Of a stretch of 64,000 bases of DNA, positions 2,833 to 20,032 are shown in pieces. The stretch lies in the NCBI GenBank assembly GCA_038317055.1, contig JBBQBA010000002.1, positions 266,164 through 330,163 of the forward strand, given 5' to 3'. Source of the stretch: Candidatus Saccharimonadales bacterium. Lineage in GTDB: Bacteria > Patescibacteriota > Saccharimonadia > Saccharimonadales > DATKHC01. The notes below the pieces were generated by a model. The model was not told the origin of the DNA and did no database searches. It was given only the letters and a program-made list of their open reading frames with translations. The position numbers and the translations under genes are program-made. How positions within the stretch are numbered: position 1 is the stretch's first letter; the number at the start of each line of letters is the position of its first letter.

Positions 2833-3378
2833 ATGAAATCCAATCAAAAAGGATTTACTCTTGTTGAAGCCCTTATCTTGTTTATTGTATTAGTGATTGT
2901 TGTTGGTACTGGCATATATATCTTCCAATACAATAACAATAAAGATAATACTCAACACCTAGAAGTAAATATGCCTGACGATACTCCACCATATATCTTT
3001 TCTATAAGTGAGTGGAAAATTCAGGCACCTTATCATGGCGAACAAGCTCTGAGATATACAATTGATCCAAGTGATCCCAATGAAGCGGGTCTTACGTCTA
3101 CGCAGCTAGTTAATGCTGACAGTAGTTGTCCATCTAATGCAGCTGGTTCTATCGAACGTGCTCAGGCAGGCGAACAATCTGTTTTGGGTGCGATTCCGCA
3201 AACTCCGGAACAATACGTTCAATCGGGCGCCAAATACTACACTAAAATTGGTAGTTATTATTACTTTTTCTCAGGACCACAGATGAATTGCTCAAGTGAG
3301 AGTTCAGTAAATATAATACAAAAAACTACAACCAAAGAGATACAAAATCTGATGTCAAAGTTTGTGACTAGCAAATAA
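2833..3378 (+). CDS. type IV pilin-like protein (prepilin-type N-terminal cleavage/methylation domain)
   Basis: The N-terminus MKSNQKGFTLVEALILFIVLVIVVG carries the class III signal G|FTLVE followed by a hydrophobic helix. Confidence 0.8.
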   Translation: MKSNQKGFTLVEALILFIVLVIVVGTGIYIFQYNNNKDNTQHLEVNMPDDTPPYIFSISEWKIQAPYHGEQALRYTIDPSDPNEAGLTSTQLVNADSSCPSNAAGSIERAQAGEQSVLGAIPQTPEQYVQSGAKYYTKIGSYYYFFSGPQMNCSSESSVNIIQKTTTKEIQNLMSKFVTSK

Positions 3379-3380
3379 AT

Positions 3381-3402
3381 AGTTCGGAACTCTTGACCCA
3401 GC
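3381..3402 (+). repeat. intergenic cassette-boundary repeat, copy 8 (truncated)
   Basis: Sequence AGTTCGGAACTCTTGACCCAGC, starting 2 nt after the pilin stop codon. Confidence 0.6.
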
Positions 3403-3412
3403 TTTATGTAGA

Positions 3413-3994
3413 ATGATCTGTTATCATATCTTAGTGAAAAGTCTAATATTTTCAACTAGTAACGAAGGCAAATATAAAACAGCTCAATCTGTATTTAGCC
3501 AATATGGTATAGCTGTTATTCAAAAAACTGCAGATGTGGATGAAATACAGTCTGAGGATGCCAGAATAGTAGCTATAGACAAATCCACCAAAACATATGA
3601 ATTATTAAAACAACCAGTATTGATAACGGACGACTCTTGGTCATTTCCTGGTCTTAAAGGATTTCCTGGTGTATATATGCATTCTATAAATACATGGTTT
3701 AGCCCAGAAGACTTTTTACATCTTACCCAATCACTTAAAAATCGTAGAGCTATATACACTCAATATCTTGTATACAATAACGGTGAAGAGCACAAAGTAT
3801 TTAAGTCTGAGCATAATGGGACGCTACTAAAAGAAATAAAAGGAAGCTCTCCTCATGCAAGCCATATGATTATAGCAATGGACGGAGAGAACGGTCTTAG
3901 TATTGCAGAGATACATAACAAAAATGTAGATCGCTCTAAACGAGATATGTCAGAAGCTTGGCATGAGTTCGCTAAGTGGTTTAGTAAAGCATAG
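3413..3994 (+). CDS. Ham1/ITPase-like non-canonical NTP pyrophosphatase
   Basis: The segment LIFSTSNEGKYKTAQSVF...ITDDSWSFPGLKGFPGVYM resembles the Ham1 family (TgNkgK...DDSGL..L.G.PGvyS). The true start may instead be the GTG at 3434. Confidence 0.6.
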   Translation: MICYHILVKSLIFSTSNEGKYKTAQSVFSQYGIAVIQKTADVDEIQSEDARIVAIDKSTKTYELLKQPVLITDDSWSFPGLKGFPGVYMHSINTWFSPEDFLHLTQSLKNRRAIYTQYLVYNNGEEHKVFKSEHNGTLLKEIKGSSPHASHMIIAMDGENGLSIAEIHNKNVDRSKRDMSEAWHEFAKWFSKA

Positions 3995-9924: not shown

Positions 9925-10989
9925 CTACTTCTTATTAAGCTTTTTAGAACTGTTATCCATATTGATTACTTTCCGATAAGCCTTGAGATAATTCTTTGCC
10001 ATAATTCTTGCCGTAAAGTGCTCTTCAACATGAGCCCGACAGACAGCACGGTTGATCTTATCGATTAGTTTAACTTTTTTAGTTAGTTCAGCTATGTTCT
10101 CACAAGCGTATCCAACCTTAGCATCTTTAAAAATCTCCGGCATTGAACCTCGATTAATAGTAAGTACCGGTACACCGCAGGCCATAGCTTCAATATTAAC
10201 CAGTCCAAATGGTTCGTCCCATTGAATTGGCGAAATTAAAGCTTTAGCTTCACTGAGTATTTCGATTTTCTGTTTTTCAGCAAGTTCACCTAAGTAATTT
10301 ATATTTTTCCCGTTAATTAGAGGTTTAATTACATTACGAAAATATATTCTATCTGGCGGATCTACTTTAGCCACAATAATTAATTTCTGATGAGTAGCTT
10401 TGGCTATCGCAATTGCTTCCTCGATTCCTTTATCCGGATTAATCCTACCTAGGAATATTAAATAGTTTTTGGGTTTAGGGTTAAATTTAAACTTTTCAAT
10501 GTTTATTCCGTTATAAACCGTTGCTGCATAATGAAGGCTAGGTGAGAGTCGACGCTGTGAATTAGAAATACTAATAAAATATTGTTTAGCATAGGCTTTA
10601 TCTAAATACGCCGGAACTGGATTATGCAAGGTAGTAACTACTGGGTCACGTAAGAACTGTTTAACCAAAGTAAAAGGTTCATCCATATTGCTATGAATGA
10701 TGTCGTAGCGCGTATTTTTTAGTTTCTTGTTTACAAAATAGACAGCTTCAATTTGTTTAGCAAACCAATCTCTTGGTTTAAAAGCTATTAGACTTCGAAC
10801 AGGTAGGTCGGTAATAGGAATTAGGTTAGCACTAGTGACGGAATCTCCAGTTGCAAACAGATCGACTTCATGACCCAGCGCCACTAATTCTTCGGCGAGA
10901 TTAAATACAACCCTCTCAGTGCCACCATACTTTTTGGGAGGTACGCTCTCTTCAATAGGTGCAAGTAAAGCAATTTTCACCTTAAACAA
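9925..10989 (-). CDS. glycosyltransferase family 4
   Basis: Motifs GGTERVV and the EX7E region EPFGLVNIEAMACGVPV are present. Confidence 0.85.
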   Translation of the reverse strand: MFKVKIALLAPIEESVPPKKYGGTERVVFNLAEELVALGHEVDLFATGDSVTSANLIPITDLPVRSLIAFKPRDWFAKQIEAVYFVNKKLKNTRYDIIHSNMDEPFTLVKQFLRDPVVTTLHNPVPAYLDKAYAKQYFISISNSQRRLSPSLHYAATVYNGINIEKFKFNPKPKNYLIFLGRINPDKGIEEAIAIAKATHQKLIIVAKVDPPDRIYFRNVIKPLINGKNINYLGELAEKQKIEILSEAKALISPIQWDEPFGLVNIEAMACGVPVLTINRGSMPEIFKDAKVGYACENIAELTKKVKLIDKINRAVCRAHVEEHFTARIMAKNYLKAYRKVINMDNSSKKLNKK

Positions 10990-11069
10990 ATACCCTTATA
11001 AGTAAACCTCTACCAGTTAAGTATAAAAGTTACTTAACCATGGAAGTACTTTTAATATAGTTTATCCGA

Positions 11070-11100
11070 AGTAAAACGACAATCTTATCGTCGTTTTTTT
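11070..11100 (-). terminator. putative rho-independent terminator overlapping the 3' end of 11085..11696
   Basis: The stem AAACGAC/GTCGTTT has a 9-nt loop and T-runs on both strands. Confidence 0.4.
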
Positions 11101-11696
11101 CTATTTCGCCAGGATTTAAAAAGCTGAAATACACCGATTGTTTTTTTTGGATCTTCTGATACTTTGAGTTCTGGTACTTCTTGAGGTACATATTCAGTTT
11201 TATTATCGTCAACCCATATTTCTGGAACGGCTCTAGGTGCACTTTTATGCTTAAAGATTAGATGTGCTTCTTGTTCATAGATGTAGTTTCCATTATCAAG
11301 TCTTATAATTTTAATTCCATGCTTACTAGCACTTTCTTGGTCGGACCTAATAACCGTACCGACATGTAGATAAGTTCCAGTCGAAATCTCTTCAAGATAT
11401 GGGGTCATGTGTACATGAACTCTCATATTTAATTCTTCAGTCTTCTGGGGCGGCTGAGTATAAGCCCTTAGATCTTCGCCGGCGACAATTATCATATCGT
11501 TTTCCAGTTTAGAGATGGCTTTTTTACCATTAACGTCAAAACGTAGTATTGTGCCTTGGAGATTATCAACTCCGTCGGCAGTCACAACATTTACATCAAT
11601 TCGCTCACCTACAAATGTGCTTTGAAGTGGAAATGTGTTATTTGTTGGTCGCAGTATATTATATGTCGTCTCATACATAGAACGAATATTATACAA
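11085..11696 (-). CDS. hypothetical protein
   Basis: A 203-aa ORF with a basic C-terminus. I recognise no family. Confidence 0.55.
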   Translation of the reverse strand: MYNIRSMYETTYNILRPTNNTFPLQSTFVGERIDVNVVTADGVDNLQGTILRFDVNGKKAISKLENDMIIVAGEDLRAYTQPPQKTEELNMRVHVHMTPYLEEISTGTYLHVGTVIRSDQESASKHGIKIIRLDNGNYIYEQEAHLIFKHKSAPRAVPEIWVDDNKTEYVPQEVPELKVSEDPKKTIGVFQLFKSWRNRKKRR

Positions 11697-11726
11697 TATT
11701 ATTGCGCTTTTTCGTAACTTATTTAT

Positions 11727-11900
11727 TTAAAGTTTAGTTTCAATCCGTTTATTGTTTCGAATACCAATTGCAGATACAAGACCACCACCAAGACTATTAC
11801 TAATTGAAGGTAGTGCTACATTTACAACTGAGCTATCTAAAAAGGCAACAAATGATGCTAAAACACTGATAATTATTACTAGACGTTGCTGTCTGGACAT
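11727..11900 (-). pseudogene. remnant of an MFS (DHA2/EmrB-type) transporter, first ~45 residues only
   Basis: My own translation gives MSRQQRLVIIISVLASFVAFLDSSVVNVALPSISNSLGGGLVSAIGIRNNKRIETKL*. The FLDSSVVNVALPSI segment is the TM1 signature of DHA2 MFS pumps, and the ORF stops after 57 aa. Confidence 0.55.
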
Positions 11901-11920
11901 GGATTTAGCATAACATTTAA

Positions 11921-13096
11921 TTAGAAGCTGAATGTTTGGGCTGGCGCACTAGCTTGATACAGAGAACTTGAGTAAACCTGTTGAAAAGCTGCTAGAGAAT
12001 TGGGACTAGAATCAATTGGATAACTATAGCTAGTTGATCCACTAGAATCAAAATAATTTATAGCTTTTATATGAGGAAAAGATGTCGGAATAGCTTTGAG
12101 GTAAGCATCTGTAACCCACTCTGCTTTTGAACTCGGAGCAAAAGCTAAACCGCTATATTCTAATGTACCCGTCTCAGCGATAATTACAGGTCTTTTAGTT
12201 AATGCAACTATATCGTTATAACCTGGTGTAAAGATTTTGGTAAATGAAGATGGATTTGTAGAATTTTTATTATATCCGTCCATAGAGGCCCAACTAATGT
12301 TACTATCCCCTGGATAATATGAATCTACATTAGCTATCGATGTGCCACTTGAAAAACACCAAATAAATTGTACGTTTGTTGCTCCAGCTTGTTTAAATAA
12401 TTGAACGACATGGTTATATGCAGCAACATACATTTGAGGAGTATTAGTATATGGGTAATTTCCAGTCGGTGAGGTAGGGTCAAGTTGATTATTCGAAAGG
12501 GGAGTGGAGTTTGCAGCTACGTTTCCCCAAGGATACCAATTACCGTTAAATTCATGCATAAGTCTCAAATAAATAGGGTGATTTACGGCTTTTGCGCTTT
12601 GAGCCCAAGCTGTAATATAACTATCTTCACTTCCGTTAGACATGCTCGTCAAGACGCTAGTGGTTTTATAAGAACTCAGATTTGCCTGCCAAGTAATCAT
12701 TGGTGTAGAACCCATAGAAATTATGTTATTTACATTAGTTAGCGGAAATTTTTCTGGCACTCCATTAAATTCCCAACCATAAAAAGCATTTATTAATTTA
12801 GGTGTTACACCAATTTGGTTTATGGCATTTTGCAAATTTGAAAGTGGAGTATTTAGGCCAATCGTAATGCCAGCTGGTGGAGATAAATTTCCAAACTGAA
12901 CTGCTCTTCCATTCGAAGCATTACTATCCTGGGTAGCTATGGCTGGTGAGGTGAGAGATCCAGATTCAGCTTGAATGGTGACATAAGAAGAAAGTGCATG
13001 GATGCTTATTAATAAACTAACACCGACCACAGTTATTATCGCGATTATTAATATACCAGCGACTTGTTGTTTGTTAAATTTTTTAATATTAGACAC
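11921..13096 (-). CDS. glycoside hydrolase family 26 (beta-mannanase-like), secreted
   Basis: The YLRLMHEFNGNWYPWG motif is present, and the N-terminal anchor ends in IHALS. Confidence 0.7.
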   Translation of the reverse strand: MSNIKKFNKQQVAGILIIAIITVVGVSLLISIHALSSYVTIQAESGSLTSPAIATQDSNASNGRAVQFGNLSPPAGITIGLNTPLSNLQNAINQIGVTPKLINAFYGWEFNGVPEKFPLTNVNNIISMGSTPMITWQANLSSYKTTSVLTSMSNGSEDSYITAWAQSAKAVNHPIYLRLMHEFNGNWYPWGNVAANSTPLSNNQLDPTSPTGNYPYTNTPQMYVAAYNHVVQLFKQAGATNVQFIWCFSSGTSIANVDSYYPGDSNISWASMDGYNKNSTNPSSFTKIFTPGYNDIVALTKRPVIIAETGTLEYSGLAFAPSSKAEWVTDAYLKAIPTSFPHIKAINYFDSSGSTSYSYPIDSSPNSLAAFQQVYSSSLYQASAPAQTFSF

Positions 13097-14363: not shown

Positions 14364-14897
14364 ATGAAAAAACTAATAAGCATGTTTGCAACAGTGGCTG
14401 TAGGTATGAGCCTTGCTGTAAGTGGAGTCGCCGCAGCTGACTCTATAACTAACACGGGCCCAGGCTCAACTAACACAATCGACACTTCACAAACAAGTGA
14501 TACAAGCATAGATTGTAACAACAACATTAACAGTAGTAACTCTAACCCACAGAGTTCAAGTACTGGTTCTGGAACAACAAACGAAAACACATCAGGTGGA
14601 AGTGCAACTTCTGGTAATTCTAGTAACAACAGTTCAACAGACGTAACTGTAAACACAAATTGTGGTTCAGCTATGACTGCAAGTTCTACCCCAGCTGGAA
14701 AAGGTGCAGGATCAACTACTCCAACACCAACACCAGCACCAGCAGCAACTCCACAAGTTGTCGCGCCAACTGGTAGCGTTCATGCAGGTGGCGGCGCCGG
14801 AGTAAAAACTTCAAATCTTGCTGCTCTAGGTCTAGTAGGATCAGTTAGTGCACTTGGTCTTGGATTAGTAGCACGTAAAACTGCACTATTTCGATAA
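14364..14897 (+). CDS. secreted S/T/N-rich surface protein with an LPXTG-like (VAPTG) C-terminal sorting signal
   Basis: It has the signal peptide MKKLISMFATVAVGMSLAVSGVAAADS, and a C-terminus with VAPTG, then a hydrophobic stretch, then ARKTALFR. Confidence 0.7.
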   Translation: MKKLISMFATVAVGMSLAVSGVAAADSITNTGPGSTNTIDTSQTSDTSIDCNNNINSSNSNPQSSSTGSGTTNENTSGGSATSGNSSNNSSTDVTVNTNCGSAMTASSTPAGKGAGSTTPTPTPAPAATPQVVAPTGSVHAGGGAGVKTSNLAALGLVGSVSALGLGLVARKTALFR

Positions 14898-14961: not shown

Positions 14962-15777
14962 ATGAATATTTGGCGAGCCAAATACTATAAATTCAATATT
15001 AGCCAAAATCGAAAAGTATTAATTACTATTCGCCGGTTCAAGACTGCCAAAATAAATCGTTCAAAGAAGTTTAGTCAGATAGTAATACCGTTTGAAATCG
15101 GTAAGATCAAAGAGTTCTCGTTCAGACTTCATCAGACTAAAAGACGTAGTCGAAAACAAAAAGAACTAACAACCTTGCAACGATTTACTCCAACTCCTGC
15201 GAGCGTACTTATTACACTGGGTTTAATTGGAACAATAGTATTTGGCATACAAATAAGCTCAAGTCATGCTCTTGAACCGACCAAAACTTTCTCAACCACT
15301 AAACAGGTGGCGCCGGTCAAATCATTGCCGGCGTCCGTTCCAACAAATATATCTATACCATCTGTTAATATAGATTATCCAATCATTACAGTTGGACTAG
15401 ATACTGCTGGTGCTATCCAGTTGCCACCAGTACTGTCCTGGAATACAGGTTGGTATAATGGAAGCCCTACTCCTGGACAAATTGGACCCTCAATAATAGT
15501 TGGACATGTCGATAGTTATCAAAATATCTCAGTATTTTGGCGTCTACGTTATGTTCAGCCAGGTGCGTTAATTTATATCAAACGAACAGATGGAACTACT
15601 GTCACGTTTAAAGTAACCGATTTAAAGCAATTCGACCAAAGTGCGTTTCCAACGGCAGAAGTATATGGCAATATAAAATATCCGGGACTTCGCCTAATTA
15701 CCTGTGGTGGAACATTTGATTCTCAATCTGCAAGCTATTCGCAAAATACAGTAGTATTCGCAACTATAGTAGATTAA
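14962..15777 (+). CDS. sortase family protein (class E/F-like), no Arg downstream of the catalytic Cys
   Basis: It carries the His motif SIIVGHVDS and the Cys motif LRLITCGG. The tail TFDSQSASYSQNTVVFATIVD contains no Arg. Confidence 0.75.
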   Translation: MNIWRAKYYKFNISQNRKVLITIRRFKTAKINRSKKFSQIVIPFEIGKIKEFSFRLHQTKRRSRKQKELTTLQRFTPTPASVLITLGLIGTIVFGIQISSSHALEPTKTFSTTKQVAPVKSLPASVPTNISIPSVNIDYPIITVGLDTAGAIQLPPVLSWNTGWYNGSPTPGQIGPSIIVGHVDSYQNISVFWRLRYVQPGALIYIKRTDGTTVTFKVTDLKQFDQSAFPTAEVYGNIKYPGLRLITCGGTFDSQSASYSQNTVVFATIVD

Positions 15778-15982
15778 TGCCTGTGCTTTTGCACCCCAAG
15801 AGAGAAAGCATAAGTGATACTATAAAATGTATTTTACATTTACTCATTTCTAGTGTATAGTAATATTCATAACGAGCGGAGATGGAGGGCTTTCTCACTT
15901 GATTTGGCAGATTTATCTGACTTATCAGTAGTAAGTTCTGTGTTGAAACTCGTCTTTTTATAAACCTATACAAGGAGACGCT

Positions 15983-16195
15983 ATGTACGGAATGGGCGGA
16001 GGCGGAATATCATCAGTTGGTACCGCAGTTACCACTACAGCTACAGGCGCATTTGGCGTTGCATTTCTTCCTAATACTGGAAGTCTTTCAGTAATGTTTT
16101 ACATCGCAGCAACTTATATTGCTATCGGAATTGTAAGCTTACTCGTAAACGGTGCAATTAAGTTCAAAAAGAACTTAAGCAACAAAGCTCAATAA
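15983..16195 (+). CDS. 70-aa LPNTG mini-protein (sortase substrate without a signal peptide)
   Basis: An SD (AAGGAG at 15972-15977) precedes the start. LPNTG occupies aa 29-33, followed by a TM helix and a KFKK tail. The N-terminal 28 aa are G/T/A-rich and uncharged. Confidence 0.6.
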   Translation: MYGMGGGGISSVGTAVTTTATGAFGVAFLPNTGSLSVMFYIAATYIAIGIVSLLVNGAIKFKKNLSNKAQ

Positions 16196-16245
16196 ACTAA
16201 ATAGACTTATAAGTAACCCTTATAAACTAAATAGTTAGGTTTAAT

Positions 16246-16899
16246 ATGAAGAAAATTCTTTCTCAGATTAAAAACAGAAAAATAAGTAATGCTCAACTAG
16301 TTAGTCTAGTTAGTATCACTTTACTTGCAATTGGACTCGTAATTGTATTACCTTCGCTTTATTTTAGGTGGAATAACACTGGTACGGCATCAGCTAATCC
16401 GATAACTGCGAGTCAGGTATGGTCAAAAGTTAACTCAGAAGCTAAACCAACCACAAATCAAGTAAAGGTAACTGGATTTCCTATATCTATATCGATTCCA
16501 GGGTCTCGACCAGCCCTAAATATTTACGATCAAGTTATTCCTGGTTATTATAATAAAAACAGTGGTCAGTGGACTCTAAGCGGCAAGGCAGCTCAATTTG
16601 CTGTGATATCTAGTCAACCTAATAACATTTCTGGAAATACTTTTATTTATGGTCATTATAATCCATATGTGTTTGCATACTTACATTTAATTACCCCAGG
16701 TACAGTTGCTACTATTACAACTGACAATGGCTATGAATTTAGCTATAAGTTTGTAAATACATATACAGTCCAGCCAACTGATACTAATGTTCTAAACTAC
16801 AGTGGATCACCAATCTTAACAGTTCAAACATGTTCAGGTGCTTTTTTCCAAAACCGACAAATGTTTGTATTTAGCTTCGAAAGCTATAAGAAAATATAG
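16246..16899 (+). CDS. sortase family protein
   Basis: It has an N-terminal TM anchor, the His motif FIYGHYN, the Cys motif LTVQTCSG, and Arg in FQNRQMFVF. Confidence 0.8.
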   Translation: MKKILSQIKNRKISNAQLVSLVSITLLAIGLVIVLPSLYFRWNNTGTASANPITASQVWSKVNSEAKPTTNQVKVTGFPISISIPGSRPALNIYDQVIPGYYNKNSGQWTLSGKAAQFAVISSQPNNISGNTFIYGHYNPYVFAYLHLITPGTVATITTDNGYEFSYKFVNTYTVQPTDTNVLNYSGSPILTVQTCSGAFFQNRQMFVFSFESYKKI

Positions 16900-16904
16900 A
16901 TCAA

Positions 16905-17054
16905 CTAAACAGTTTTTACGAAGATTATAGTCTCGTAGAGTTGGTAAGTTAGATATCCTAAAGATCCTAGGGTAGCGATGATTGCTAGATAATGGGCTAG
17001 TTTGATAGTAAGCTTCTTGAATTTTGTATTCTTCTTAGACTTAGTTTTACTCAT
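16905..17054 (-). CDS. small membrane protein (49 aa) coupled to the upstream GT2 gene
   Basis: My own translation gives MSKTKSKKNTKFKKLTIKLAHYLAIIATLGSLGYLTYQLYETIIFVKTV. An AAGGAG SD lies 8 nt upstream and overlaps the GT2 3' end. Confidence 0.45.
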   Translation of the reverse strand: MSKTKSKKNTKFKKLTIKLAHYLAIIATLGSLGYLTYQLYETIIFVKTV

Positions 17055-17066
17055 AACTCTAACTCC

Positions 17067-18422
17067 TTATATCTTTGCTGTATCTTTAAGTGCACTTGTA
17101 CTAATTGCATAACGACGACCTTCGGTTGCCCAACCTTCAGTTTGAGCAAGGAATTTACGAAATACTACTACTTCAACGAAAGCAGCTATAAATAGGCACA
17201 ATTCAAACCAACGAAGAAAATAGAAGTAGGGTAGTGACGCGATGATGGTCCAGCGCTTAATAACTATGGTAGAGAAGATAGCCAATACAATTACAGCCAT
17301 AAAATCACCAAGAATAAGCGTAGGAAGAACTACCCAACGTCCAGTCGTGTAGATAATAAATGGTATGAAGATTAGGATCTCAAACAGATACAGAAATACC
17401 TGTATCATTGAGTAGGCAATACCAATGTCCAAAGGGTGAAGTTTGAGACCGACTTTATATTTCATTGCACACTGGAAAAATCCTCGTTGCCACCTCATTG
17501 TTTGTTTAGAGAAGTCTCTCAGTGTTTGAGGGTCTTGGGTATAATTAACGGCTCGGGTTATAAAGTGAACTTTACCTAGTTTTTTACGGTGCACTTGATA
17601 GGTGAGATCAAGGTCTTCAGCTAGAACTTTAGAGTTAAAGTCTAGATCTTTAATGATGTCTGTTCTAAACGAGGTAAGCGGTCCAGGGAATACAGATATC
17701 ATTCCAAACCAAGATTGCCATCGACGAGTTAGATGTTGAGCATATGTGTAACAAAAAGCCCGATAATGAGCTATCCAGTTACCGCGCATACTTTGAATAA
17801 AACCGATTGCGACTGCATATTCTTTAGAGTTAGAAAGTTCTTTTCGATAAATTCTAAAATAATCTTCACCGAAAATACTATCTGCGTCAGAAACATGAAC
17901 CCAAAGATACCTTTTCTCGATCTCAAAATGTCCTATAGCGCTAAATATAGCTTTTGCTTTTCCACTTCTTTCAACACTTAAGATATTTTTCTTACCTAGT
18001 GCAGCAATAACCAATTTTCGGGTGTTATCATCTGAATTATCATCGACTACAAATATATCTTCTTTTTTCATACCGGCTCGAATTGCTGAAGCGATAGTAG
18101 CGCTAATAATTAATTCTTCGTTGTGCGCAGGTAGAAGTAGGGCTAATTTCTTTCGACGTGTAACTTTCTGAGTTTTAGTAGTCTTAGTAACCTTTTTAAC
18201 AGCTTTTTCAACAATTATATTGCGATTAGTAGTAAGATTAATGGTTTTTCTAGAGTTGAATTGAGTACGAGATGGGGTAATAGTAGTCCTAGGAACCGTT
18301 ATAGAAGCCCTAGGAGCAGTAATTACAGCTCTGGACGTTACGATATCAGATCGTGGCGTTTTAATACTAGAACGTTCTAATATGATTGGGGCATGTCGTT
18401 TAAATCGTCTAAATATTCTCAT
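17067..18422 (-). CDS. processive family 2 glycosyltransferase (cellulose/chitin-synthase-like)
   Basis: Motifs LLLPAHNEE, SDADS and the Q-x-x-RW motif (QTMRWQRG) are present, followed by C-terminal TM helices. The N-terminus has short tandem ITxPR-type repeats. Confidence 0.85.
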   Translation of the reverse strand: MRIFRRFKRHAPIILERSSIKTPRSDIVTSRAVITAPRASITVPRTTITPSRTQFNSRKTINLTTNRNIIVEKAVKKVTKTTKTQKVTRRKKLALLLPAHNEELIISATIASAIRAGMKKEDIFVVDDNSDDNTRKLVIAALGKKNILSVERSGKAKAIFSAIGHFEIEKRYLWVHVSDADSIFGEDYFRIYRKELSNSKEYAVAIGFIQSMRGNWIAHYRAFCYTYAQHLTRRWQSWFGMISVFPGPLTSFRTDIIKDLDFNSKVLAEDLDLTYQVHRKKLGKVHFITRAVNYTQDPQTLRDFSKQTMRWQRGFFQCAMKYKVGLKLHPLDIGIAYSMIQVFLYLFEILIFIPFIIYTTGRWVVLPTLILGDFMAVIVLAIFSTIVIKRWTIIASLPYFYFLRWFELCLFIAAFVEVVVFRKFLAQTEGWATEGRRYAISTSALKDTAKI

Positions 18423-18610: not shown

Positions 18611-20032
18611 ATGGTTATTACTGAGGCCCAGCCTAAGCCTTTAGATTTAATTTGCCCCGATGAACTAACTACACGTGATGGCATTGTAAATGCTATGCAA
18701 AATTTAGTTAGTAGCGACATGTCCGGTGAAGAGCAAATTGATCATCTAAAAAACTTAACCGAAAGACTTATTGCTGTTACGGGAGATGTTGCAGTAGATG
18801 AATATGACCGATATAGTAAAACTAGCGAGCGTGGTCTACAGCTTCCTCATCAAAAACTTTTCGAACAACTTGAAGATAAATCAGTAATTGTCACTGGTGG
18901 AACTGGTTTAATAGGCTCAAAATTAATACCACTTATAAAAGGTTACAATCCTAGAAGAATAGTTAGCCTAAGCCGTGGAATTACAACTCCCATGGAACAA
19001 ATAGAAGGCGTTGAATATCATAATGTAGATATTAGAAACGCCGATAAATTAAAAGTTAGTATCGATACAATCTCACCGGATGTTGTGTATCATTTAGCTG
19101 CTCAACGACTACCTGATTTAGCCGAAACTGAAGTAAATCGAACTGTTACCACGAATGTTGACGGAACAAAGAACATTATTGATGCCTTAACAAATGCTGG
19201 TGTAGATCAATTGATTTACGCTTCTACCGGTAAAACACTACGACCATTTTCGCCCGATGTTTATGCAGCATCTAAACAATTTACTGAGGCAATACTTGCT
19301 CAAGCGTCTTCTGAATCGCCAATTCAAATTTCTGCTGGTAGATTTACACACGTAGTGGATGGTTCAAATATTATTCGAAAATTAGCTTCATGGATTGAAA
19401 ATGGTGAAGTAATCGACATTCATGACCCTAACAGCGTGATGTACGTTCAATCTGCCCGAGAAGCAGCCATGTTACTTCTAATTGCTGGAGTAGATAAGAA
19501 ACCGGACGTATTGAACATTCATGCTATTAGAGATTTAGGCTACCATATTAATACCGCCAATGTTGCTATTGGAGCATTAATTAAGATGGGTGGAAAATCT
19601 CCAATACGATTTACTGGATATAGTTCAGGTTACGAAGAAGAGGCATATCACGGACTGTTTCACCCTCGTACCTCACTCGATATAAGTCCGCTAATAAATC
19701 AGCATGAAGCAGAAGCCGCAAAACCGTCTGTATTATGTGAAGAAGTTGATGTATTTCCATTTCAAGTTGGTGATCTTAGTGTTTTTAATGAATACGTTGA
19801 ACTGCTTAAAGAAGCTTGTAATAATGATATGGACTCAGGCTTTATTAAAGAATTAATGGCCGAAGTATCATGGGCTTTATGGGATGCAAAAATTGATGCA
19901 ATGCCGCCGCTTGCTGTACTTAAGGCAGCTAAAAAAGCAGCAAATATTCGAAGTCATCCAATAGCTAGCACTAACAAACATCATTTTCGAACAGACCAAG
20001 CATTTATAGATAAAGCTATATTATTAAGCTAA
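18611..20032 (+). CDS. NAD-dependent epimerase/dehydratase (polysaccharide biosynthesis, CapD-like)
   Basis: It has the Rossmann motif VIVTGGTGLIGS and the YxxxK motif (YAASK). Confidence 0.8.
   Translation: MVITEAQPKPLDLICPDELTTRDGIVNAMQNLVSSDMSGEEQIDHLKNLTERLIAVTGDVAVDEYDRYSKTSERGLQLPHQKLFEQLEDKSVIVTGGTGLIGSKLIPLIKGYNPRRIVSLSRGITTPMEQIEGVEYHNVDIRNADKLKVSIDTISPDVVYHLAAQRLPDLAETEVNRTVTTNVDGTKNIIDALTNAGVDQLIYASTGKTLRPFSPDVYAASKQFTEAILAQASSESPIQISAGRFTHVVDGSNIIRKLASWIENGEVIDIHDPNSVMYVQSAREAAMLLLIAGVDKKPDVLNIHAIRDLGYHINTANVAIGALIKMGGKSPIRFTGYSSGYEEEAYHGLFHPRTSLDISPLINQHEAEAAKPSVLCEEVDVFPFQVGDLSVFNEYVELLKEACNNDMDSGFIKELMAEVSWALWDAKIDAMPPLAVLKAAKKAANIRSHPIASTNKHHFRTDQAFIDKAILLS

Follow-up and report, generated by a model that had tools for sequence, protein, structure and literature searches.

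What can a protein contribute to a cell envelope when it consists of a sortase motif, a single membrane helix and hardly anything else? The question is raised by a 64,000-nucleotide stretch of a Candidatus Saccharimonadales contig (hereafter the window), for which a preliminary description had pointed to a 70-residue LPNTG protein without a signal peptide, encoded between two sortase genes. The reading that we favour, with a probability of roughly 0.55, is that this mini-gene encodes a stand-alone sorting signal, a leaderless and cargo-less substrate dedicated to the sortase encoded downstream.

A minimal sorting signal between two sortase genes

The mini-gene occupies positions 15983..16195 of the forward strand, starting with ATG (15983) and ending in a stop codon (16193-16195) as read from the window sequence; its assignment draws on the open reading frame, an alignment of homologues, dN/dS values and an AF2 model. 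A Shine-Dalgarno sequence AAGGAG (15972..15977, forward strand) precedes it with 5 nucleotides between the two elements, in agreement with the strong ribosome binding site that had been described. The 70-residue product (MYGMGGGGISSVGTAVTTTATGAFGVAFLPNTGSLSVMFYIAATYIAIGIVSLLVNGAIKFKKNLSNKAQ) begins with an N-tail of 28 residues (15983-16066) that contains zero charged residues and has a mean Kyte-Doolittle hydropathy (KD) of 0.86. It is followed by the sorting motif LPNTG (residues 29-33, 16067-16081), a hydrophobic membrane helix (approximately residues 35-59, 16085-16159, KD 2.0) and a basic tail, KFKKNLSNKAQ (residues 60-70, 16160-16192), which opens with the KFKK noted previously. Protein length, motif, helix and tail were thus all found as the preliminary description gave them.

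The absence of a signal peptide was also confirmed, since the N-tail is uncharged and the frame cannot be extended upstream. An in-frame stop codon lies upstream and 15983 is the first start codon after it, which excludes a longer, leader-bearing N-terminus. The AF2 model of the protein predicts a disordered N-tail and one helix at residues 36-69. Zero Pfam or NCBIfam models matched the window protein, and the LPXTG anchor model TIGR01167 did not match it at E ≤ 1.

Upstream of the mini-gene there is a weakly supported promoter-like sequence (TTTACA-17-TATAGT, 15833..15861, forward strand, 10 of 12 matches). A promoter and terminator scan returned 9 sites against 15.6 expected from shuffled sequences, without enrichment, and it is the position alone of the promoter-like site that is suggestive of a mini-gene promoter. 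The window has a GC content of 36%, and tRNA and Rfam features were not found in it.

The mini-gene is conserved across Saccharibacteria

Homologues of the downstream sortase were aligned (27 sequences) and one genome per species was then scanned, giving 80 loci, almost all of them labelled Saccharibacteria or Saccharimonadales. The region upstream of the sortase could be assessed in 76 of these, the other four ending at the sortase itself. A homologous open reading frame of 52-66 residues was found in the same slot in 67 of the 76 loci, its end lying 6-118 nt from the sortase gene. Because loci were retrieved via the sortase, only four informative look-ups support the converse, namely that the sortase accompanies every mini-gene. 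Independent gene callers also predict the mini-gene in JGI and Logan assemblies.

Including the window, the family comprises 68 members, all of which are ATG-initiated and carry a Shine-Dalgarno core of at least 4 nt (68/68), extended to a 6-mer in 38. Residue 2 is tyrosine in 54 of the 68, so that these proteins share an 'MY' start. The N-tail spans 13-28 residues (median 18, most 17-21) and is composed of 21% Gly, 17% Ala, 14% Val and 11% Thr. The motif reads LPxTG in 64 of 68 members (LPNTG in 36) and MP[KR]TG or LPNTA in the remainder; within the alignment its Pro and Thr are invariant, while the motif Leu, the motif Gly and a glycine in the middle of the helix are at least 90% conserved. 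The cytoplasmic tail, AKKAYKA-like, is conserved along with this mid-helix glycine. Outside the motif, identity averages approximately 40%, and a near-invariant LPxTG within so variable a protein is the pattern expected if the active site of a sortase reads the motif.

Selection on the coding sequence was evident from dN/dS values of 0.01-0.20 in 18 of 20 equal-length pairs, with one further pair saturated and one nearly identical pair at 0.69, indicating that the mini-gene is under purifying selection. A word-indexed protein search with the window protein alone found only itself. An exhaustive HMMER search returned 15 matches at E ≤ 0.001, most of them 57-84 residues long and two of them long proteins; one match was a 66-residue protein with 60% identity to the window protein. 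The closest homologue, P0084, lies on contigs shorter than 1 kb, which show little of its gene neighbourhood. A profile of the family retrieved 175 protein clusters, of which the best 120 all measure 53-94 residues. Database labels on some of the mini-proteins are generic. TIGR01167 matched 37 of 53 family members at E ≤ 1, and its cutoff of 15.9 bits was reached by 6 of 20 members scanned singly, the members scoring 11-20 bits.

These data bear on whether the open reading frame is a gene at all. It is short and of low complexity, and both its lack of a Pfam or NCBIfam match and the word-indexed search that recovered nothing else could point to a chance frame, a regulatory upstream open reading frame or the decayed C-terminal remnant of a surface protein. 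However, 67 orthologues share start, length and motif under the selection described above, the profile clusters share its size, and a single nested sortase clade is the only one without the mini form; this explanation can for practical purposes be dismissed. The mini-gene is a real conserved gene of Saccharibacteria, encoding 52-70 residues. Homologous small frames beside sortases in related genomes, for which the preliminary description had proposed a search, are therefore present, and its concern that the frame might not be conserved is answered.

The one genetically tractable species that was checked, Southlakia epibionticum, appears to lack the module beside its 199-residue sortase, and the supplement to its Tn-seq study lists two sortases, neither with a mini-gene module. 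A separate observation concerns a 193-kb contig with the full module (L015, JAYVTZ010000002.1), which was deposited as part of a Burkholderiaceae metagenome-assembled genome; an error in binning or labelling probably accounts for this.

The downstream sortase and a separate class F pair

The sortase gene downstream (16246..16899, forward strand) starts approximately 50 nt past the end of the mini-gene and encodes 217 residues that match Pfam PF04203 with 50 bits against a cutoff of 26.6. None of the NCBIfam class models passes its cutoff on this protein, the best being SrtD with 26.8 bits against 140, and Foldseek and profile searches gave matches to classes A, C, D and E with no clear preference (14-21% identity). 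His137, Cys196 and Arg204 are invariant in the alignment of 27 homologues, and the AF2 model (pLDDT 86) predicts an N-terminal membrane helix followed by a sortase barrel. Judged by this alignment and model, the protein looks like a functional sortase that fits no defined class.

Across the loci the start of the sortase gene, crudely assigned as sortase starts are, mostly lacks a Shine-Dalgarno sequence, and that of the mini-gene is much stronger; such a difference fits a substrate that is consumed. The downstream sortase is the likely processing enzyme of the mini-protein. The 50-nt spacer between the two genes in the window holds a 13-nt direct repeat (ATAAACTAAATAG, 16192..16204 and 16221..16233) on either side of a short palindrome (ACTTATAAGT).

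The second flanking sortase lies upstream (14962..15777, forward strand) and is a class F enzyme (NF033748, 176.2 bits against a cutoff of 166). It is preceded by a gene (14364..14897, forward strand) for a 177-residue secreted Ser/Thr/Asn-rich protein that ends in VAPTGSVHAGGGAG, a transmembrane helix and an RK tail. No class F sortase was found within ±4 kb of the module in any of the 80 loci. Class F orthologues elsewhere show the same arrangement, a substrate-like gene preceding the sortase (L084, 2352..3846; L087, 2329..3603; L090, 10153..11725, reverse strand), and the same motif in the upstream partner: these partners are secreted proteins of 177-200 residues in which AP.G.V.AG.G, not LPXTG, is followed by a helix and a basic tail. 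From these features the 14364..14897 product is a probable substrate of the class F sortase. Since the class F enzyme is absent from the 80 loci and has a partner of its own, the apparent sandwich consists of two adjacent substrate-enzyme pairs; a similar juxtaposition, in other arrangements, occurs in L090 and L091. The preliminary description had treated either neighbour as a possible processing enzyme; both genes do encode sortases, but conservation as a partner is confined to the downstream one. As an observation in its own right, AP.G.V.AG.G (e.g. VAPTGSVHAGGGAG) is a candidate non-canonical sorting signal for class F sortases.

A polysaccharide synthase accompanies the mini-gene and its sortase

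Convergent with the downstream sortase gene is a gene for a membrane-embedded glycosyltransferase of the GT2 type (17067..18422, reverse strand), identified by Pfam GT2 families and carrying the motif QxxRW (QTMRW), a signature of processive membrane synthases. The protein weakly matches PgaC_IcaA and the models for XrtG- and XrtP-associated glycosyltransferases; its sole sequence match in the PDB is hyaluronan synthase (E = 6e-4), and some members of the family show a weak or faint match to a chitin-synthase model. The family was found in 77 of the 80 loci, usually as the next gene to the sortase, with QxxRW in 71 of 79 members. In sortase clade A, which includes the window, the GT2 gene is convergent; in clade B it is co-directional and at most loci starts -7 to +6 nt from the sortase stop codon. 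The conserved module is therefore the mini-gene, the downstream sortase and GT2, the mini-gene being tied to GT2 by a genomic link only.

Immediately downstream of the window GT2 gene, a small gene (16905..17054, reverse strand) encodes a 49-residue protein with a basic N-terminus and one transmembrane helix. Equivalent open reading frames of 43-53 residues (approximately 108 in four loci) lie between GT2 and the sortase in 14 clade-A loci, for example L002 (4681..4830) and L005 (4615..4773), where they encode one transmembrane segment and a Y..Y/H motif. The 16905..17054 product is likely a small synthase subunit and, by analogy, may act in the manner of IcaD or PgaD.

Additional neighbours belong to envelope synthesis. 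On the upstream side, 54 of 80 loci have a CE4 polysaccharide deacetylase gene, which the window lacks at that position, and MurA-like, MurB and MraY-family genes often occur nearby as well. In the window, an envelope-glycan stretch (9925..13096) in the neighbourhood of the module includes a GT4-like gene and a gene for a GH26-family hydrolase (11921..13096, Pfam PF02156), and a 473-residue open reading frame (18611..20032) is divergent from GT2. Mini-gene, sortase and polysaccharide synthase together suggest that sortase chemistry is put to a use not described before.

Full-length substrates occupy the same slot in one nested clade

The nine assessable loci that lack the mini-gene correspond to one sortase clade, which a neighbour-joining tree places among the mini-bearing clades as a nested group. 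Here the slot holds a protein of 175-207 residues with a signal peptide and NTGPxSxN repeats, which ends in LP[EAV]TG, a helix and an AYRR-type tail. Positions 8-54 of the 57-position mini-protein HMM align onto the C-terminus of these proteins, and since the profile covers the C-terminus of ordinary substrates, the mini-protein amounts to an isolated sorting signal. On sequence grounds, the slot upstream of the sortase is a substrate slot, and the finding that it can be filled by a conventional cleavable substrate supports the interpretation of the mini-protein as a substrate. The mini form, present in all other sortase clades, is widespread and probably the older state.

The nine-locus proteins belong with a family of Ser/Thr/Asn-rich LPxTG proteins of Saccharibacteria (STr), which has an identical slot and whose C-terminal ~47 residues align with the mini profile. 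STr proteins have a signal peptide and an NTGPxSxN passenger of approximately 120 residues, whereas the mini-protein corresponds to the STr C-terminus only; the window homologue of the STr family is the 14364..14897 product described above. Two side observations concern the full-length proteins. The NTGPxSxN-repeat family lacks a Pfam hit and occurs in L051, L053, L060, L064, L066, L078 and L079 as several paralogues per locus (e.g. L060, 161..739 and 3226..3798), some with and others without an LPxTG anchor. Also, the sequence GGKGA lies 25-35 residues before LPxTG in full-length substrates and recurs at many mini-protein N-termini (MYEGGKGAG).

The exchange of mini-gene for conventional substrate is relevant to a different model, by analogy with SafA, in which the mini-protein would be an accessory or regulatory subunit, its LPxTG serving as a pseudo-substrate or its helix packing on the sortase or GT2, and would stabilise, localise or gate the sortase or the membrane segments of GT2. 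SafA of Actinobacteria is a transmembrane protein of 52 residues, genetically linked to a sortase, that acts as a sortase factor by protecting SrtA from signal peptidase (PMC9282373); it is encoded downstream of srtA, acts via an FPW motif and has no LPXTG (PMC9282373). An accessory role would also account for the near-invariant mid-helix glycine and the conserved cytoplasmic tail, and for the gene order in clade B, where the mini-gene is in an operon with the sortase gene, whose stop codon overlaps or abuts the GT2 start. However, the most conserved element of the mini-protein is the cleavage motif LPxTG and not an FPW-like interaction motif, one clade swaps the mini-gene for a conventional cleavable substrate, and a Shine-Dalgarno sequence far stronger than that of the enzyme suits a protein that is consumed. 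We therefore regard the accessory model as unlikely. Nevertheless, the tail and the mid-helix glycine are more conserved than a throw-away anchor would require, a hint that the membrane part may have a role of its own.

A proposed route through the membrane and the sortase

If the mini-protein is a leaderless sortase substrate, it has to present its motif outside the membrane. The N-tail carries a net charge of 0 or +1 and the C-tail one of +2 to +5 in 67 of 68 members, a distribution that favours an N-out/C-in orientation; the insertion through the C-terminal helix proposed in the preliminary description is in this respect supported by the charge pattern of the whole family. The N-tail (median 18 residues) is both too short and, with a mean KD of 0.84 across the family against 2.3 in the helix, too weakly hydrophobic to form a second membrane span. 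A hairpin topology with the N-tail as a signal-like helix was considered and rejected, most N-tails being 17-21 residues long and of low hydropathy. N-out proteins with short uncharged N-tails are known to insert via YidC and the proton motive force (PMC8548208, PMC9421054).

On this basis we infer the following pathway. The mini-protein would insert as a single span, N-out/C-in, with its basic tail remaining inside, and its short, nearly uncharged N-tail would cross the membrane without a signal peptide in the manner of the YidC-type Pf3 coat protein. LPNTG would thereby be placed three residues outside the membrane, the normal geometry for a sortase, and Cys196 would cleave the bond between Thr32 and Gly33; the candidate sortase target peptide is GVAFLPNTGSLS. 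A 32-residue peptide of Gly, Thr, Ala and Val (17-25 residues in most relatives) would then be passed to an amine acceptor in the envelope, most likely lipid II or peptidoglycan, with the module acting together with the adjacent processive GT2 and, in most relatives, the CE4 deacetylase. We know of no earlier case of a sortase substrate that lacks a signal peptide. Were the mini-protein processed as proposed, sortase substrates could reach their enzyme without Sec leaders, a 'cargo' of a short peptide would imply modification of the wall or of a glycan and not the display of a protein, and a new testable component would be added to the poorly understood envelope of these ultrasmall epibiotic bacteria.

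The nature of the acceptor could be more unusual than peptidoglycan. Mini-protein, sortase, GT2 and CE4 could work as a single machine whose sortase chemistry is directed at a glycan and not at a protein, a proposal that is speculative and, as we see it, improbable. The peptide of 17-32 residues may in that event be attached to the polysaccharide, for example at glucosamine amines exposed by the deacetylase, or alternatively to peptidoglycan, where it may act as a handle for the polysaccharide. The outcome would be a peptide-glycan conjugate or tether, a sortase function without known precedent, made from the first sortase substrate to be exported without a signal peptide.

The acceptor amine could instead belong to the mini-protein itself, as the preliminary description had suggested for its glycines: the N-terminal oligo-Gly of one copy, or else a lysine, would attack the Thr-acyl-enzyme formed with another, yielding head-to-tail polymers, a cyclic peptide or an adaptor resembling a wall cross-bridge. 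The glycine content of the N-tails is compatible with this (21% of residues), as are the MYGMGGGG start kept in the closest relatives, a GKG-type lysine near the N-terminus in about half of the members and the GGKGA sequence shared with full-length substrates. However, in 54 of 68 members a tyrosine follows Met1 and keeps it in place under the methionine-aminopeptidase rule, so that no free N-terminal glycine is generated. Outside the closest relatives, P0084 and P0096, the glycine run is not conserved, and tails read MYGKGAG, MYGQVLGAST or MYEGGKGAG. Lysine is present in 35 of the 68 N-tails and missing from 33, the window protein included, and the sortase is no nearer to the pilin-polymerising class C than to classes A, D or E. 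An N-terminal oligo-Gly nucleophile is thus not supported across the family, and polymerisation or cyclisation is very unlikely.

A further question is which product of the cleavage would be the useful one. Sortases hydrolyse the acyl-enzyme when a nucleophile is unavailable, and sortase hydrolysis could in principle constitute a leaderless route of export and maturation for a released N-peptide of 17-32 residues with a signalling or surface activity. Equally, the retained C-peptide could function in signalling or as a synthase partner. In matched pairs, the C-terminal helix and tail (55-63% identity) and the N-tail (57%) are equally conserved, and C-peptides left by sortases are discussed as signals in streptococci. 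However, no conserved sensor kinase or receptor was found in the neighbourhoods of the loci, where the conserved neighbours are enzymes of envelope polymers, and we consider it quite unlikely that either peptide is the purpose of the system.

Relation to known systems

Transfer of a minimal sorting signal to the envelope, the process that we favour, can be set against several characterized systems. Canonical LPXTG substrates, as modelled by TIGR01167, have in common with the mini-protein the LPxTG motif, a hydrophobic segment of approximately 25 residues, a basic tail and an adjacent sortase. In contrast, the mini-protein has neither signal peptide nor passenger, measures 52-70 residues with a 'cargo' of 13-28, and in the case of the window member falls below detection by TIGR01167. 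Like it, SafA is small, spans the membrane once and has a genetic link to a sortase; the mini-gene differs in lying upstream of the sortase and in having LPxTG as its most conserved element, and the FPW motif was not found in alignments of the mini family.

The closest likeness for membrane insertion is the Pf3 coat protein, which has approximately 50 residues, no signal peptide, one helix and a basic C-tail (PMC9421054, PMC8548208). The mini-protein likewise combines a short N-tail without net positive charge, one transmembrane helix and a basic C-tail. Pf3-type proteins lack a sortase motif, and the likeness concerns only the putative route of insertion. The mini-protein does not resemble sortase-assembled pilins: it has no Ig-like domain, AF2 predicts no folded domain, the window protein is among those devoid of an N-tail lysine, and the sortase is not specifically of class C. 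Loci for exosortase and PEP-CTERM exopolysaccharide systems, including those with XrtG- or XrtP-associated GT2 enzymes, similarly combine a transpeptidase, small proteins with sorting signals and a GT2, but here the enzyme is a sortase and not an exosortase, and the motif is another.

Full-text literature searches returned no description of the mini family or of a sortase substrate lacking a signal peptide; a review of type IV secretion systems (T4SS) and the 2013 TM7 genome paper mention sortases generically only. A family found across environmental Saccharibacteria has kept just the sorting signal, its own sortase and a linkage to a polysaccharide synthase, and the module offers a compact natural enzyme-substrate pair for sortase engineering.

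The preliminary description had called the protein far smaller than known sortase substrates. This is plausible, but NCBIfam already names families of small sortase targets, among them NF058583 ('LAXTG motif-containing small protein') and NF053819 (EF2685/EF0750, a 105-position model). The mini family lies outside both, with a few weak, sub-threshold matches confined to the anchor region; NF058583 matched 6 members in the family scan and was not recovered among the 20 members scanned singly. Three mini-proteins carry two motifs, LPATG and either MPKTG or MPRTG, 9 residues apart (L011, 3728..3898; L014, 3765..3935; L035, 3725..3901), and recall the NCBIfam 'doubled motif LPXTG anchor' family.
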